From an uncultured archaeon (GTDB lineage Archaea > Asgardarchaeota > Thorarchaeia > Thorarchaeales > Thorarchaeaceae), in the NCBI GenBank assembly GCA_964354495.1, contig CAYHAA010000006.1, positions 120,817-152,816 on the forward strand: 32,000 nt of DNA, written 5' to 3'. The notes below the pieces were generated by a model. That model searched no databases. It worked only from the letters and a program-made list of their open reading frames with translations, and was not told where the DNA came from. The translations under genes and the position numbers were made by a program. Position 1 is the first letter of the stretch. Each line of letters opens with the position of its first letter. Shown here piece after piece: positions 16,277 to 20,753 of the stretch.

Positions 16277-16298
16277 GAGAGAGGGCTACACCTCTCTC
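16277..16298. terminator. Hairpin between convergent genes, candidate terminator
   Basis: Perfect 8-bp stem GAGAGAGG-gctaca-CCTCTCTC overlapping the stop of the minus-strand gene. Confidence 0.45.
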
Positions 16299-16788
16299 AT
16301 AGATCGGCTTGACAATTCTGACACTTCGAGAGACCCTGTTCGGTCTTTGCACCACAATATGGACAAACGACGAGGACCTTGACCACTTCACGCTCTCTCG
16401 TCGAAGTGCTACTCATGGTGGCTTCCGGCGTGGAACGGACGAATGTGTTGCCCTCGACTGTTCCATGAATCATACCTGATGCAATTGCAGAGTAGAGCGC
16501 GTTTTTCACCTTGTCCACGGGGAGTCTCGACATCTCGGAAAGTTCTTCCATGGTGATTCTTGTGTGACCGCGAGCAATCCCGACGACCCTTGTTGCAGTA
16601 GAGATCTCTGCTCTTCGTCGGAATGCAAGTATGAAGAACACCAGCGAAATGACAAAGATGGCTATTCCCACACCCCACATCGCTCCTTCACTCATGATCA
16701 TAGTTGTGATGCCGCCAGCAAGCATCACCAAGCCCAGAAGTATGAATGTGCAGAACATGCAGTCGCCGCACTCTTTGTTTGATGACAT
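16297..16788 (-). CDS. Two-TM membrane protein with PCI-like winged helix and C-terminal double-CxxC Zn ribbon
   Basis: Two TM helices, then ITMEELSEMSRLPVDKVKNALYSAIASGMIHGTVEG (PCI-like wHTH), then CPYCGA...CQNCQA. Confidence 0.75.
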   Translation of the reverse strand: MSSNKECGDCMFCTFILLGLVMLAGGITTMIMSEGAMWGVGIAIFVISLVFFILAFRRRAEISTATRVVGIARGHTRITMEELSEMSRLPVDKVKNALYSAIASGMIHGTVEGNTFVRSTPEATMSSTSTREREVVKVLVVCPYCGAKTEQGLSKCQNCQADL

Positions 16789-16937
16789 AACGGATTTTGC
16801 CTCAGACTATGTTTTATGGCTGTAGAGTGATGTTAATCCACCTGATAGGGACAATGGATTTCATCGGGCCTCAGTAGCAAGACCATGCTTTAGTTCTCGG
16901 GAAAAGGCAACAACTGAGAAAAGGACCACTTTGGAAC

Positions 16938-16970
16938 ATGCCTCCAGAAGACATGAACATCGCAATCTGA
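16938..16970 (+). pseudogene. mvhD: 5' fragment of an mvhD gene (codons 1-10, then stop)
   Basis: ATGCCTCCAGAAGACATGAACATCGCAATCTGA (MPPEDMNIAI*) versus intact ATGCCTCCAAAGGACATGAACATCATCATA (MPPKDMNIII) at 17771. Confidence 0.7.
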
Positions 16971-17055
16971 CCATTTGAAACTTCCATGGTTGGGAACAGA
17001 AAGTTGATGAGAAAAAGGGTCATACTATAAAGCGCTGAGTTGAGGGAAGACACGA

Positions 17056-17661
17056 ATGGTTGCAGAGAACTCTAAAGCTGTTTTTGTGGCAATGACCATC
17101 ATATTCAGTATCTCTGCCGCAGCTTTTCTGTCCTTGAGCGATTCGAGTAATCCAGTCGATACTGGAAACACCTCAGGCATTGCGACTCTCTCAATAATGG
17201 CCAACAGTACCGACCTGCTATATCCCGAGCTGGCCGAGGCAAGTTTCGTGTTTCTGGAGAGTGATACTTGGCGGGTTAACGCTAATTTCATGAATGACTC
17301 CGTCGATTGGTATGATAACCTTGAGATATATGATCTAGACTTTGTGGTCACTTCAGAAGAAGTGAAGTCTATAGACGATGCGCTCTATGAGGGACTGAAC
17401 AAGACTTCTCCTTCTGAGATCTCTGCTATGACGTTGTTGGAACCAGGTCCACACATCTGGTACGACATAGAAATCACATACACTGATGGCTCATGGATAT
17501 ACATCACCACGTTTCAAACAGAAATTGGCCATATCATAACCAACAATGGCACGGGCACTTTTGATGGGAACCTCTTGAGCGGAACAGTCTTAGAGCCATT
17601 GTCTGCTCTTGATCGTCTTGTCTTAGCCATCTATACTATCTTCTCGAACCATCTGGGGTAG
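17056..17661 (+). CDS. Hypothetical acidic secreted/surface protein with N-terminal signal anchor
   Basis: Hydrophobic N-terminus AVFVAMTIIFSISAAAFLSL; D/E/S/T/N-rich body with several NxS/T sequons. Confidence 0.75.
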   Translation: MVAENSKAVFVAMTIIFSISAAAFLSLSDSSNPVDTGNTSGIATLSIMANSTDLLYPELAEASFVFLESDTWRVNANFMNDSVDWYDNLEIYDLDFVVTSEEVKSIDDALYEGLNKTSPSEISAMTLLEPGPHIWYDIEITYTDGSWIYITTFQTEIGHIITNNGTGTFDGNLLSGTVLEPLSALDRLVLAIYTIFSNHLG

Positions 17662-17770
17662 GACTGAAGTTTCTCTCAACATTGTCTTGGTCATTTCAGA
17701 GATACCACAGGTCAAAAGATATAACACCCTTCAAGATTCCCTCAAATCAATTCCAAGTGGTGCTTAGCTA

Positions 17771-18181
17771 ATGCCTCCAAAGGACATGAACATCATCATA
17801 TTTGGTTGCCAACAATGTATGTACGCTGCCTCCGACTTAGCAGGGACCATGAAGCTGCAGTACGATGCGTCGAGCAGGATCATCAGGATGCCGTGCACCG
17901 CAAGGCTCGACATCAACTTCCTTCTGAAGGCATTGCAGGAGGGTGCAGACGGAGTGCTTGTCGTCGGGTGTCATCCAGGAGACTGCGCATTCAAGACTGG
18001 AAATCTGGGGGCAGAGAGGCGGGTCCGTTTCACAAAGAAGCTGATCGAGCAGTTGGGCCTTGACGAGCGCCGCGTGAAGATGGTGTTCGTTTCTGCAGCA
18101 GAGGGCGACAAGTTTGCGGCCGAGGTCAACAAGTTCGCAGAGGAGATACGTGCGATAGGACCGAACCCAATCAGACTGTGA
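17771..18181 (+). CDS. mvhD: MvhD/FlpD [2Fe-2S] hydrogenase iron-sulfur subunit, intact
   Basis: FGCQQCMYAASDLAG, PCTARLD, GADGVLVVGCHPGDC and GPNP motifs. Confidence 0.93.
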   Translation: MPPKDMNIIIFGCQQCMYAASDLAGTMKLQYDASSRIIRMPCTARLDINFLLKALQEGADGVLVVGCHPGDCAFKTGNLGAERRVRFTKKLIEQLGLDERRVKMVFVSAAEGDKFAAEVNKFAEEIRAIGPNPIRL

Positions 18182-18182
18182 T
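18158..18182 (+). repeat. 25-bp direct repeat, copy 1 (3' end of intact mvhD)
   Basis: GGACCGAACCCAATCAGACTGTGAT, identical to 19378..19402. Confidence 0.9.
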
Positions 18183-18238
18183 GGTAGAGGTAGCAAAAGG
18201 CTTATGTGTGCAAAATAATATAATGTACACGATATGGA

Positions 18239-18541
18239 ATGGAAACCGTTACTGCTAGATTACCTGAAGACATGGTCAAGAAGCTGGAGCTCATCGCACG
18301 GGAAGAACAGATTGACAGGTCAGAGTTGATCAGAAGAGCACTTGATATTGGGATACAGCAGTTCCTCTTGGAACGAGCACTCAGAGCGTATAGAGAAAGG
18401 CGAGTATCCCTCTGGAAGGCCGCATCAATGGCTGGTATCCCCCTACGGGCCATGATGAGAGAGGCGGACAAGGGACAGATCCCCATAGCCTACGATGAAG
18501 AAGACCTGGAGCGTGATCTTGCATTTGTCAAGGGTCAGTAG
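18239..18541 (+). CDS. Probable antitoxin: N-terminal ribbon-helix-helix plus UPF0175-like HTH
   Basis: TVTARLPEDM...DRSELIRRAL (RHH) and VSLWKAASMAGIPL (UPF0175-like); immediately upstream of a PIN gene. Confidence 0.8.
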   Translation: METVTARLPEDMVKKLELIAREEQIDRSELIRRALDIGIQQFLLERALRAYRERRVSLWKAASMAGIPLRAMMREADKGQIPIAYDEEDLERDLAFVKGQ

Positions 18542-18542
18542 A

Positions 18543-19040
18543 GTGGTGAGCAATGCAAGTCCTCTGATTCATCTCTCGATGGTTGGGTGTCTCAACTTGC
18601 TTGAGAGATTGTTTGGCAATGTCATAATTCCCGTTGAGGTACTCGAAGTATGCAGTGCAAAGGACACTCCTGATTCGATTGTGATATCGTCTGCAGTCGA
18701 TAAGGGATGGATATTTACTAAGAATGTTGACAGCGGAGATACGGTCCTCTTGGCAAAAAGCTCTGGGATAGATATTGGCGAGGCCGCTGCAATACTACTC
18801 GCAAAACAGGAGAGAGCCTTGCTTCTTATTGATGATAAGATGGGAAGAAGTGCAGCTGAAATTCTAGGAGTCAAATGTCTGGGTACAGTTGGTGTGCTCC
18901 TCCAGGCCCTTTCTGACTCACTACTCAACTTCAACGAATTCGTAGGGATTCTGGATCGGATGATTGATTTAGGATTTCGATTGGACTCGAAAGTCTATAG
19001 ACTGGCAATGCGAGTGGCTAAAGAACTCAAGAAGAATTAG
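18543..19040 (+). CDS. PIN-domain protein (DUF3368-like), probable VapC-type toxin
   Basis: VVSNASPLI, IDIGEAAAILLA, LLLIDDKMGRSAA and GTVGVLL motifs; start uncertain (TTG 18525 or GTG 18543). Confidence 0.8.
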   Translation: MVSNASPLIHLSMVGCLNLLERLFGNVIIPVEVLEVCSAKDTPDSIVISSAVDKGWIFTKNVDSGDTVLLAKSSGIDIGEAAAILLAKQERALLLIDDKMGRSAAEILGVKCLGTVGVLLQALSDSLLNFNEFVGILDRMIDLGFRLDSKVYRLAMRVAKELKKN

Positions 19041-19042
19041 CC

Positions 19043-19401
19043 TTTCGTGCAATGCATGTATGCCGCCTCTGACCTCGCAGGTACGATGAAGTTGCAGTAT
19101 GACGCCACCAGCCCAATCATCAGGAGGCCATGTACCGCCAGACTGGACATCGATTTCCTCCTGAAAGCATTACAGGAGGGAGCAGACGGAGTGCTGGTTG
19201 TCGGGTGCTTAGGGAAATTGCGCATATATGATCGGGAATCTGAGGGACAATCGGCGTTTCAGGTTTGAAGGCAACCAGATTCAAATGAAAGAAGCGAAAA
19301 TGGAATTCATGAATGTCACTGAGCATAATCTAATTAATACCGAGGTCAACAAATCCACTGAGAAAATTCGGGCGATTGGACCGAACCCAATCAGACTGTG
19401 A
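19043..19401 (+). pseudogene. mvhD: Degenerate mvhD copy: 5'-truncated, frameshifted near 19209-19218, with a net 15-nt deletion
   Basis: First frame reads QCMYAASDLAGTMKLQYD...GADGVLVVGC. Second frame (19219-19401) reads CAYMIGNL...EVNKSTEKIRAIGPNPIRL*. Both align to 17771..18181. Confidence 0.88.
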
Positions 19402-19402
19402 T
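19378..19402 (+). repeat. 25-bp direct repeat, copy 2 (3' end of mvhD pseudogene)
   Basis: Identical to 18158..18182, 1220 bp downstream. Confidence 0.9.
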
Positions 19403-20753
19403 ACGGGGCAAAAGTGTGGCCGAGAAGGACTCGAGTGCGAATTCAGTTTGGCTTTTGAAACGTAATTCCTTGGTCAGAAGACTCTTCCTTGGAATCTTTA
19501 CAATAGGGTTTGCAGCAGGAGCATTACGGTTTCTTTTTCCATGGCAGGTACTGAATCTCGGTGGCACGGAATCTCTTATCTCATTAGGAGGCACTCTCTC
19601 TGCCATCGGACAGGTAGTGGGGCTTCTGTTATTGAGCAGGCTGTTTCGCGGCAAGAGAAGTTCGATGCTTGTGAGTGGGTTGCTTCTTGCAGCCTTCGCA
19701 CTGGCAACAGCTCTTGCTCAGGACAGTGTTGTTCTAACGTCAGCGCGACTGTTTGAGGGAGCAGGTGCAGGGTTGCTTGCGCTCCTTATCATCAGGGTGT
19801 CCTGCGAATTCGAGTCTTGCCGGGGAGAAACCGTTGGAACGTTACTGTCAGCTTTGTTCCTAGGGTCAGCAATTGGCCAAGGTGTTGCAGGGATTGCAGT
19901 AGAGAATGTATCACTGGTTCTATCATTGTCACAGCTTGCTGCGATACAATCTCTCGGATTCATACTTTTTCTCCCATTTCTTCCCGTTCTTGGATTGATG
20001 TTACCAAAAATAGAAGATCCGCCTGCACCCACGACGAACGAAGGCCCCAAAGAACACAAGCACTTTCACTTCAGTCATCTTATCAGAGCCCTTCTCACAA
20101 AGAGAGTGGTGCTTCTTGCAGCAGTCTATTTCCTCTACGACTTCTCTCACGGCTTTTACACTCCGATACTCTCCATTCTAATCAATGACAACGGCGTTCC
20201 AATTGATCAAATAGGGTTAGGATATCTTACTGGCGACCTGGTCTGGGGAGGCACTCAGTTGTATGCCGGCCGCCTTGTAGATCGAATTGGTCACATTTGG
20301 CCTCTTGTCCTCAGCCTGCTTGCCAAGGGGACCATAGTGTTCTTCTATGCAGGAGTCTTCTCGTTCACATCACTTATTCCCCTGTTAGCTTTGGCTGGAG
20401 CATCTGAAGGCCTCTTGGAACCGGCGAGAAATGATGCGGCAATGGCCTATAGTCCGGCAAGCAGTCTGACTCATGATCACTCCCATTATTATCTAGTTCA
20501 TAGCCCGGGCATGTCTTTCTCGCTTGCAAAACACGACCATGAACATATGCATCTCACCGGCTCAGATGAGGTCGTTTCTATATTACAGGCAGTTGGACTC
20601 CTCGGTTTTGCTATTGGAGCTAGTGGAGGAGCTTGGATGTTGCTAGAGAATTTGTCAATGTCATTCCTCACGGCAGTTGGGGGGGCAATTCTGATTCTAG
20701 CAGGAGCGCTCTCTGCAGGCTTCCAATTTGCAGGTAAAGCTGAACCACTGTAG
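19398..20753 (+). CDS. MFS transporter with His-rich loops
   Basis: About 12 hydrophobic segments, motif A GRLVDRIGH, ARLFEGAGAG; HKHFHFSH and HDHSH...HDHEHMH loops; start GTG 19398 or GTG ~19416. Confidence 0.85.
   Translation: MIRGKSVAEKDSSANSVWLLKRNSLVRRLFLGIFTIGFAAGALRFLFPWQVLNLGGTESLISLGGTLSAIGQVVGLLLLSRLFRGKRSSMLVSGLLLAAFALATALAQDSVVLTSARLFEGAGAGLLALLIIRVSCEFESCRGETVGTLLSALFLGSAIGQGVAGIAVENVSLVLSLSQLAAIQSLGFILFLPFLPVLGLMLPKIEDPPAPTTNEGPKEHKHFHFSHLIRALLTKRVVLLAAVYFLYDFSHGFYTPILSILINDNGVPIDQIGLGYLTGDLVWGGTQLYAGRLVDRIGHIWPLVLSLLAKGTIVFFYAGVFSFTSLIPLLALAGASEGLLEPARNDAAMAYSPASSLTHDHSHYYLVHSPGMSFSLAKHDHEHMHLTGSDEVVSILQAVGLLGFAIGASGGAWMLLENLSMSFLTAVGGAILILAGALSAGFQFAGKAEPL

Follow-up and report, generated by a model that had tools for sequence, protein, structure and literature searches.

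Introduction

Tycheposons and other integrative elements that target tRNA genes form arrays of partial target repeats and encode tyrosine recombinases, and toxin-antitoxin (TA) cassettes are common in chromosomal integrons. The 'minimal mobile elements' (MME) concept from Neisseria and the hotspots of horizontal gene transfer in bacteria reportedly concern DNA that is flanked by core genes and exchanged by homologous recombination. To our knowledge, little is known of gene gain and loss in Asgard archaea. At icd/icdC in E. coli, the two copies of the target recombine when the insert is lost, and a chimeric, functional gene results (PMC13626634). We analyzed a 32,000-nt stretch of DNA (the whole of which is called the window) from a genus of Candidatus Thorarchaeota, in which a TA pair follows an intact copy of mvhD, a gene of the FlpD family, and is itself followed by a truncated and decaying copy, mvhD'. 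An original prediction made from this sequence had read the locus as a resident mvhD split by a single cassette of about 2.07 kb that carried a surface-protein gene, a diverged replacement mvhD and the TA pair. Our comparisons lead us to propose, with moderate confidence, that mvhD is instead an anchor beside which cassettes accrete by recombination between mvhD repeats.

Coordinates are window positions unless another locus is named, and nucleotides of mvhD are numbered from the start of the gene (full gene, 411 nt). The host genome, G000, is a metagenome-assembled genome (MAG) that is 97.7% complete, and its genus includes SMTZ1-45 and AB_25. G012 is its sister species, other G-numbers are congener genomes, and L-numbers are loci or contigs, including metagenomic or MAG ones. 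Synteny was compared over 24 congener mvhD loci, the tyrosine recombinase profile PF00589 was searched in 28 congeners, and 10 metagenomic loci were included in the search for 5' fragments of mvhD.

A 1,220-bp unit and the sister genome

The additional DNA at this locus is a 1,220-bp unit, consisting of a spacer, the TA pair and mvhD', bracketed by 25-bp perfect repeats. The features concerned are as follows.

17771-18181, + strand: intact mvhD (FlpD family, 136 aa), resident and vertically inherited as judged from synteny and orthology
18158-18182, + strand: left copy of a 25-bp perfect direct repeat, formed by the end of intact mvhD; the right copy is at 19378-19402, in mvhD'
18182-18238, + strand: spacer/promoter region of 57 nt that travels with the TA pair (kept in G002, L179, L180 and L182)
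18239-18541, + strand: antitoxin (Pfam: RHH_1, 1.6e-8; UPF0175, 9.5e-13)
18546-19040, + strand: predicted toxin (DUF3368, 2e-7; PIN-like), with an alternative start at 18495
19047-19207, + strand: 5' half of mvhD', codons 14-67, with ~92% amino acid identity and saturated synonymous divergence
19208-19339, + strand: decayed middle of mvhD', with ~50% nucleotide identity, a frameshift, a 13-15-nt deletion and AT enrichment
19340-19401, + strand: native-type 3' end of mvhD', 62 nt, 88.7% identical to G012, with a probable crossover at ~19364
19398-20753, + strand: MFS transporter gene, whose GTG start overlaps the TGA of mvhD'

Open reading frames and Pfam matches confirmed that a predicted surface-protein gene (surf), a complete mvhD and a TA pair lie between the pieces of mvhD described in the original prediction. 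The 24-25-nt perfect repeat occurs within the window only at 18158-18181 and 19378-19401. Both ends of the insert carry direct repeats of target-gene sequence (25 bp within 62 nt of similarity), with intact mvhD on the left; over these last 62 nt, mvhD' is 85% identical to the intact copy.

Comparison with G012 showed how the two arrangements are related. The sister genome has surf, a single mvhD and the MFS gene, has no TA pair, and shows the same GTGA overlap of mvhD with MFS that had been pointed out at the end of the remnant. At informative sites, its mvhD combines the two copies found in this genome, being like the intact copy at 5/5 sites in nt 363-373 and like the remnant at 4/4 sites in nt 375-387 as well as at 9/9 sites downstream. 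The two genomes therefore differ by one reciprocal crossover, at about mvhD nt 374, that adds or removes the 1,220-bp unit. A relative with a single mvhD joined to MFS, which had been suggested as a check, thus exists, but it is not a clean empty site. Besides the chimeric mvhD, G012 has a deletion of ~620 bp (window 16356-16990 compared with L024:9100-9150) that removed most of an upstream gene, orf163, together with the 5' fragment of mvhD considered below; that only the last ~60 nt of orf163 are retained points to a deletion, and G012 is accordingly no pristine empty site. The surf gene of G012 is frameshifted.

The intact copy is the best match of the G012 gene (L024:9928-10338) overall and in four of five sub-blocks covering nt 1-411, the exception being nt 281-349. 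Identities across the sub-blocks range from 78 to 99%, comparable to those of the flanking genes, with 94.9% before nt 40, 98.8% at nt 40-120 and 78% at nt 281-349. This unevenness suggests that the gene is a mosaic produced by repeated recombination within it. The intact protein matches FlpD (PF02662) over its whole length (E 8.5e-47, profile positions 1-123) and has the complete set of conserved cysteines, namely the CxxC near the N-terminus, PC and GCHxGDC.

As the source genome is a MAG, the arrangement could in principle be a chimeric contig joined through the 25-bp repeat. We consider such an assembly artifact extremely unlikely. A 5.1-kb contig from another study, ~96% identical, spans 17813-19699, and hence local misassembly does not explain the TA junctions, the remnant or the MFS start; in addition, L178 has the same gene order as the window, and the two mvhD copies are only about 80% identical. 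This contig answers the concern about misassembly for the right side of the locus. Contigs from four runs were compared with the window, and the interval 16414-16983, which includes the 5' fragment, lay outside their coverage, giving evidence neither way. A wetland contig carries the toxin followed by an undecayed mvhD', and a third contig has an additional 351-nt cassette between two mvhD ends.

The truncated copy of mvhD

The remnant that had been described downstream of the toxin is present and extends to 19401, with clear homology from nt 40 (codon 14, position 19047), 6 nt past the toxin stop. Its nt 40-200 are 77-80% identical to the intact copy. Over codons 14-67 there are 27.5 synonymous and 7.5 non-synonymous differences, corresponding to proportions of differing synonymous and non-synonymous sites (pS and pN) of 0.74 and 0.06. 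These values bear out two statements of the original prediction, that differences in the 5' half are mostly synonymous and that two diverged copies parted under purifying selection. A recent tandem duplication would have left copies that are near-identical or diverging neutrally, in disagreement with this combination of pS and pN.

The 5' half has three replacements at residues that are invariant in 21 full copies, and matches FlpD with an E value of 3.8e-17 over profile positions 8-61 only; mvhD' lacks C13 and the CHPGDC motif. The middle region has a 2-nt deletion, the 13-15-nt deletion and many changes from G/C to A/T. At position 19208, the close relatives L178 and contigs of runs X1 and X5 carry two additional letters (TA), indicating that the frameshift of this remnant is private and recent. 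We found no decay shared by mvhD' and the remnant that lies upstream of the MFS gene in G011.

The remnant had been taken for the resident gene, and it is not simply that: the 5' half is ~80% identical to most sampled congeners (70-81%), and the last 62 nt match the sister species. Those 62 nt may have been conserved for translation of the MFS gene. Between 19300 and 19345, about 55-95 nt upstream of the MFS start, the decayed middle is AT-rich (TTAATTAATA-like stretch), and this stretch might now serve as the MFS promoter.

The left side of the locus

We then considered the DNA to the left of the unit, which in the original prediction formed part of the insertion.

16968-17055, + strand: conserved upstream (promoter) block of surf, common to G012, G016, G004, G015, G022 and G021
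17056-17661, + strand: surf, an open reading frame of 201 aa with an N-terminal membrane anchor and no Pfam family
16931-16967, + strand: orphan 5' fragment of mvhD (about nt -7 to +30) with a TGA after it, from alignment and a shuffle test
16297-16788, - strand: orf163, a membrane-anchored winged-helix/Zn-ribbon protein, at this locus in this genome only

Gene order over the 24 congener loci is acd-(fpg)-cupin-[variable]-(surf)-mvhD-[variable]-gnat2-ftr. In 12 or more congeners, surf precedes mvhD at this place in the chromosome, and of its upstream block, window 16974-17042 is kept in six. The acd tree is most simply read with surf present in the ancestor of this clade. The synteny in at least 12 species and the upstream block kept in six together indicate that surf and the intact mvhD are resident and not incoming. 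A cassette of 2.07 kb as one unit is contradicted by these data, since its left 1.2 kb (the surf upstream block, surf and intact mvhD) is syntenic in those same congeners.

The start of an mvhD at 16938-16967 (codons 1-10) is nevertheless there, as had been claimed. It matches 17771-17794, the start of the intact gene, at 22/24 nt and the start of another congener's gene at 23/24 nt, and shares 7 nt of upstream sequence with the mvhD of G004; none of 200 shuffles equalled its score. It is secure for nt 1-24 only, possibly to nt 30. The claim that the fragment and the remnant are complementary therefore holds to within about 10-15 nt; the fit is not exact, with nt 1-24/30 on one side and nt 40 onwards on the other. 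The fragment separates the orf163 block from the surf upstream block and directly abuts the left end of the latter. No orphan 5' fragment was found in the other loci, including the 10 metagenomic loci, and among the loci examined the fragment is unique to this genome. A 21-nt match just after cupin in G013 was not significant, and a weak match in G002 had a p of 0.09. Relatives of orf163 (42-47% identity) occur on other contigs with no mvhD beside them.

These observations bear on the model in its literal form, in which one 2.07-kb insertion of surf, a foreign intact mvhD and the TA pair entered between codons 10 and 11 of a resident mvhD. The pieces are roughly complementary (nt 1-30 and nt 31/40-411), and G012 offers no true empty site to set against the model, its ~620-bp deletion having taken the 5' fragment and its mvhD being chimeric. 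However, surf and mvhD are syntenic in at least 12 congeners with surf most simply ancestral, the joint of toxin and nt 40 is common to genomes in which the TA pair is not next to surf-mvhD, no locus examined elsewhere has an orphan 5' fragment, and a split that predated the divergence of G012 predicts far more non-synonymous change than a pN of 0.06. We regard this model as highly improbable. The 5' fragment may still be the left scar of an insertion, as first proposed, or may be the end of a DNA piece that formerly adjoined an mvhD; that it is a scar of its own, bordering the upstream variable region, is a reading we put forward weakly.

Recurrence in other Thorarchaeota

The joint formed by the toxin stop, 6 nt and the ATG of codon 14 was found, as a nucleotide-level match, in at least eight other Thorarchaeota assemblies (the congener G002 and L178, L179/L180, L182, L183, L184 and L186/L187). 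That the right joint was made by the same event as the 5' fragment is contradicted by this distribution, the joint being common to G002 and at least seven metagenomic contigs. In G002, 3.2 kb separate the TA pair from the full gene, and the pair does not adjoin surf-mvhD; to its left are a 32-nt mvhD end and the spacer seen in our genome. Counted from alignments, this 32-nt piece matches the end of the intact copy in our genome at 27/30 positions, against 20/30 for G002's own gene, and the end of the right mvhD copy is of host type in both genomes. L179 and L180 have 1,231 nt in common (mvhD end, spacer, TA pair and mvhD') at 99.4% identity, whereas their full mvhD genes are 76% identical.

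The pair has the layout of a type II TA system, with two small adjacent genes and a DNA-binding antitoxin upstream of a nuclease-like predicted toxin; a PIN-TPR-GreABC match of the predicted toxin was below the cut-off. The two genes are kept together in at least 11 contexts. There is no nearby mvhD in G007 and L181, and in L185 the pair lies ~2 kb downstream of a full mvhD with no truncated copy after it. Its occurrence alone in these three settings indicates that the TA pair is a cassette in its own right. In G007 (L087:260-1100), the pair sits in a cluster of small TA-like genes without mvhD pieces; by eye, from translations, its neighbors are possibly HicAB-like and DUF2283-like, and an adjoining gene resembles a tRNA-splicing endonuclease.

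Pieces of mvhD are not confined to this pair. Fragments of its 3' end bound other cassettes in about 10/24 congeners (among them G002, G003, G007, G011, G015 with two pieces, G017, G022, G024 and G042), and these cassettes contain isochorismatase, prenyltransferase/CHAT, a small GTPase, a CAAX-protease-like gene, GNAT and MFS genes. All partial copies end at the stop codon. The shorter pieces start at nt 311-385, and the long truncated copies all have nt 40 as their exact first position, next to five or more unrelated cassette ends, a pattern too regular for random breakage. In L183 (250-6410) and L187 (1220-3890), three to five mvhD pieces are interspersed with TA pairs of two families, RHH/DUF3368 (+ strand) and VapB/PIN (- strand), and in L183 the last short piece adjoins an MFS gene. 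About half of the truncated copies are open and near-unchanged at invariant residues and the rest are decayed, a mixture which indicates that new copies keep arising. Judged from these alignments, cassettes bounded by gene fragments without a nearby integrase appear to be a genus-wide phenomenon. In G021, what looked like a truncated primary copy proved to be a run of N at a gap in the scaffold.

An old tandem duplication of mvhD, into which the TA pair and other cassettes were inserted later while one copy decayed in each lineage, would be in keeping with the many genomes that have two or more tandem copies, and a single origin would be the simplest account of the nt-40 boundary. We nonetheless find this quite improbable. 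An old pseudogene could not have retained 86-92% amino acid identity with saturated synonymous sites in several lineages; differing cassettes abut nt 40 without a shared spacer; a 99.4%-identical unit is present in backgrounds whose mvhD genes are 76% identical; and the mvhD mosaics likewise speak against such a duplication.

Elsewhere in G000, gene ends of 80-260 nt are repeated 1-4 kb away (C7:111372-113413, C18:9850-13722, C32:9248-13290 and C7:28683-31574), and these may be scars of the same kind. One of the repeats adjoins a TnpB fragment, and Pfam was uninformative for two of the candidates.

Recombinases and possible mechanisms

The original prediction had remarked that no integrase is visible, and our profile searches agree. 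PF00589 had no match in G000 and none on the mvhD contigs of the 28 congeners; neither TnpB nor a serine recombinase was found in the window, copies of both occurring elsewhere in G000 with PF00239 matches on other contigs; and the open reading frames of the cassette cargo contained no recombinase domains. PF00589 matches were found in only 8/28 congeners, and the lack of one in G000 would mean that this genome has no recognizable XerA-type enzyme. A TnpB-like gene of ~610 aa (Cas12f1-like_TNB) lies two genes upstream of the full mvhD in L182:263-2089, L185:1-184 and L187:1-515; it is thus seen in three lineages and is absent from the mvhD locus of this genome. A search of IMG/VR viral contigs with mvhD and the toxin gave no relatives, and a publication on Asgard mobile elements (PMC8813620) makes no mention of cassettes bounded by gene fragments.

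In the mechanism that we propose, mvhD would be a small conserved anchor gene in the genus beside which small cassettes accumulate, each bounded by a partial mvhD copy running to the stop codon from nt 40 or from nt 311-385. A circle, or an 'ends-in' fragment, carrying mvhD' would recombine with the chromosomal mvhD, probably through the homologous recombination machinery of the host. Integration would yield a complete mvhD on the left and a truncated copy on the right, and the reverse reaction would excise the unit and leave a chimeric mvhD. Crossovers at varying positions would also exchange segments between the truncated copy and working host genes, and this would explain both the recently selected appearance of truncated copies and the mvhD mosaics in the genus. 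The truncated copy would thus be a homology arm for, or a scar left by, a mobile TA unit, and the intact copy the resident gene. Accretion of this kind explains why gene order is conserved, why joints are shared, why a single crossover distinguishes the locus from that of G012 and why mvhD identity is mosaic. With respect to in-place xenologous replacement, the arrival of DNA and the presence of a working gene beside a displaced, decaying copy stand, but the direction does not, as the intact copy is the orthologue of the G012 gene.

Several observations weigh against accretion by homologous recombination. The flush nt-40 starts beside at least five unrelated cassette ends are not predicted by random crossovers and point to a specific site. 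The remnant is uneven in age, its 5' half being fresh, its middle heavily decayed and its 3' end native, so that segment exchange has to be assumed. In mvhD numbering, no more than about 10 nt separate the end of the 5' fragment from the start of the remnant, a proximity expected by chance in ~5% of cases, which must here be a coincidence; we take it as suggestive and not decisive. L180, a metagenomic contig of 2 kb, could have been wrongly joined at the repeat. Either a gain in this lineage or a loss in G012 would produce the difference between the two genomes. Finally, synonymous sites are saturated within the genus, so that trees cannot tell which mvhD copy travels with the TA pair, and identity matrices comparing how the left and right copies co-vary with the pair were too noisy for the same reason.

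The regularity at nt 40 is better served by a site-specific replacement of the icd/e14 type, the closest surviving form of in-place replacement. An incoming mvhD segment (nt 40-411) with its cargo would integrate at nt 39/40, fusing the host's first 39 nt to the incoming copy, and the old copy, without start codon or promoter, would be displaced downstream and decay; repeated rounds, with a putative recombinase acting in trans, would build the arrays. Such a process predicts what is seen where five or more differing cassette ends abut exactly nt 40, and in the arrays of L183 and L187, in which distal copies are more decayed. L179 and L180 could represent a single lineage, before and after it received a new mvhD+GNAT unit, and the copies L179_r, G002_r2 and G003_r, with only 1-3 changes at 96 invariant residues, look recently functional. 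Yet no integrase is present in any cassette or near any locus, the intact copy has no break in its similarity to G012 at nt 40, and the crossover relative to G012 is at nt 374. Many boundary pieces begin at nt 311-385, the most distal copy in G002 is the most intact one, and a short palindrome at nt 40-50 is missing from this genome's own intact mvhD. We therefore consider this replacement possible, although doubtful.

Extended to the whole group, the same idea would give Thorarchaeota a previously undescribed site-specific cassette-capture system at mvhD, with a putative trans recombinase, each cassette followed by an mvhD segment that begins exactly at nt 40 and ends with the stop, arrays with as many as five pieces, and repeated foreign replacement of most of the host mvhD. 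Its cargo would comprise at least two TA families, GNAT, an MFS transporter, isochorismatase, a small GTPase and a CAAX protease. This broader proposal strikes us as unlikely and is offered only tentatively.

Significance and comparison with known systems

The mvhD locus provides a concrete and repeatable case of gene gain and loss in Asgard archaea, in which a housekeeping electron-transfer gene appears to be a repeatedly used docking point for small cassettes, especially TA pairs, whose boundaries are marked by mvhD pieces. Were plain homologous recombination responsible, a selfish TA cassette could move between species by carrying a copy of a conserved host gene and would shuffle that gene into mosaics; were the nt-40 boundary the work of a site-specific enzyme, a new archaeal recombination system would await discovery. 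For annotation, the lesson is that short FlpD 'genes' beside Thorarchaeota TA pairs are scars and not additional hydrogenase subunits.

Integron arrays resemble this locus in their small, mostly single-operon tandem cassettes, TA pairs among them, with precise boundaries. Unlike integrons, which have IntI, attI and attC, the locus has none of these: there is no PF00589 match, the cassette boundaries are mvhD sequence, and the boundary is a 372-nt piece of a housekeeping gene. Tycheposons likewise have successive cargo blocks separated by partial copies of the target gene, but their targets are tRNA genes and they use tyrosine recombinases, whereas here the target is protein-coding and no recombinase was seen. 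With MME and bacterial hotspots the locus shares differing whole-gene cassettes between the same conserved genes, a lack of mobility genes and, probably, reliance on host recombination; those systems lack the partial copy of a flanking gene and the arrays of gene fragments.

The closest documented analogue is e14/icd/icdC, including the chimeric icd that follows excision. In E. coli icd, e14 and phage 21 lie between the working target gene and a displaced C-terminal copy (the icdC pseudogene), as the TA pair does here, and in both cases the copies differ mainly at silent sites. The chimeric gene that results from loss of the insert is mirrored by the chimeric mvhD of G012. In contrast, the prophage e14 measures 15 kb, encodes an integrase and has a defined att core, and the unit described here is 1.2 kb with a TA pair only and no integrase. 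The duplicated part of mvhD is also nearly the whole gene (nt 40-411), with the observed crossover at nt 374, unlike the arrangement at icd.

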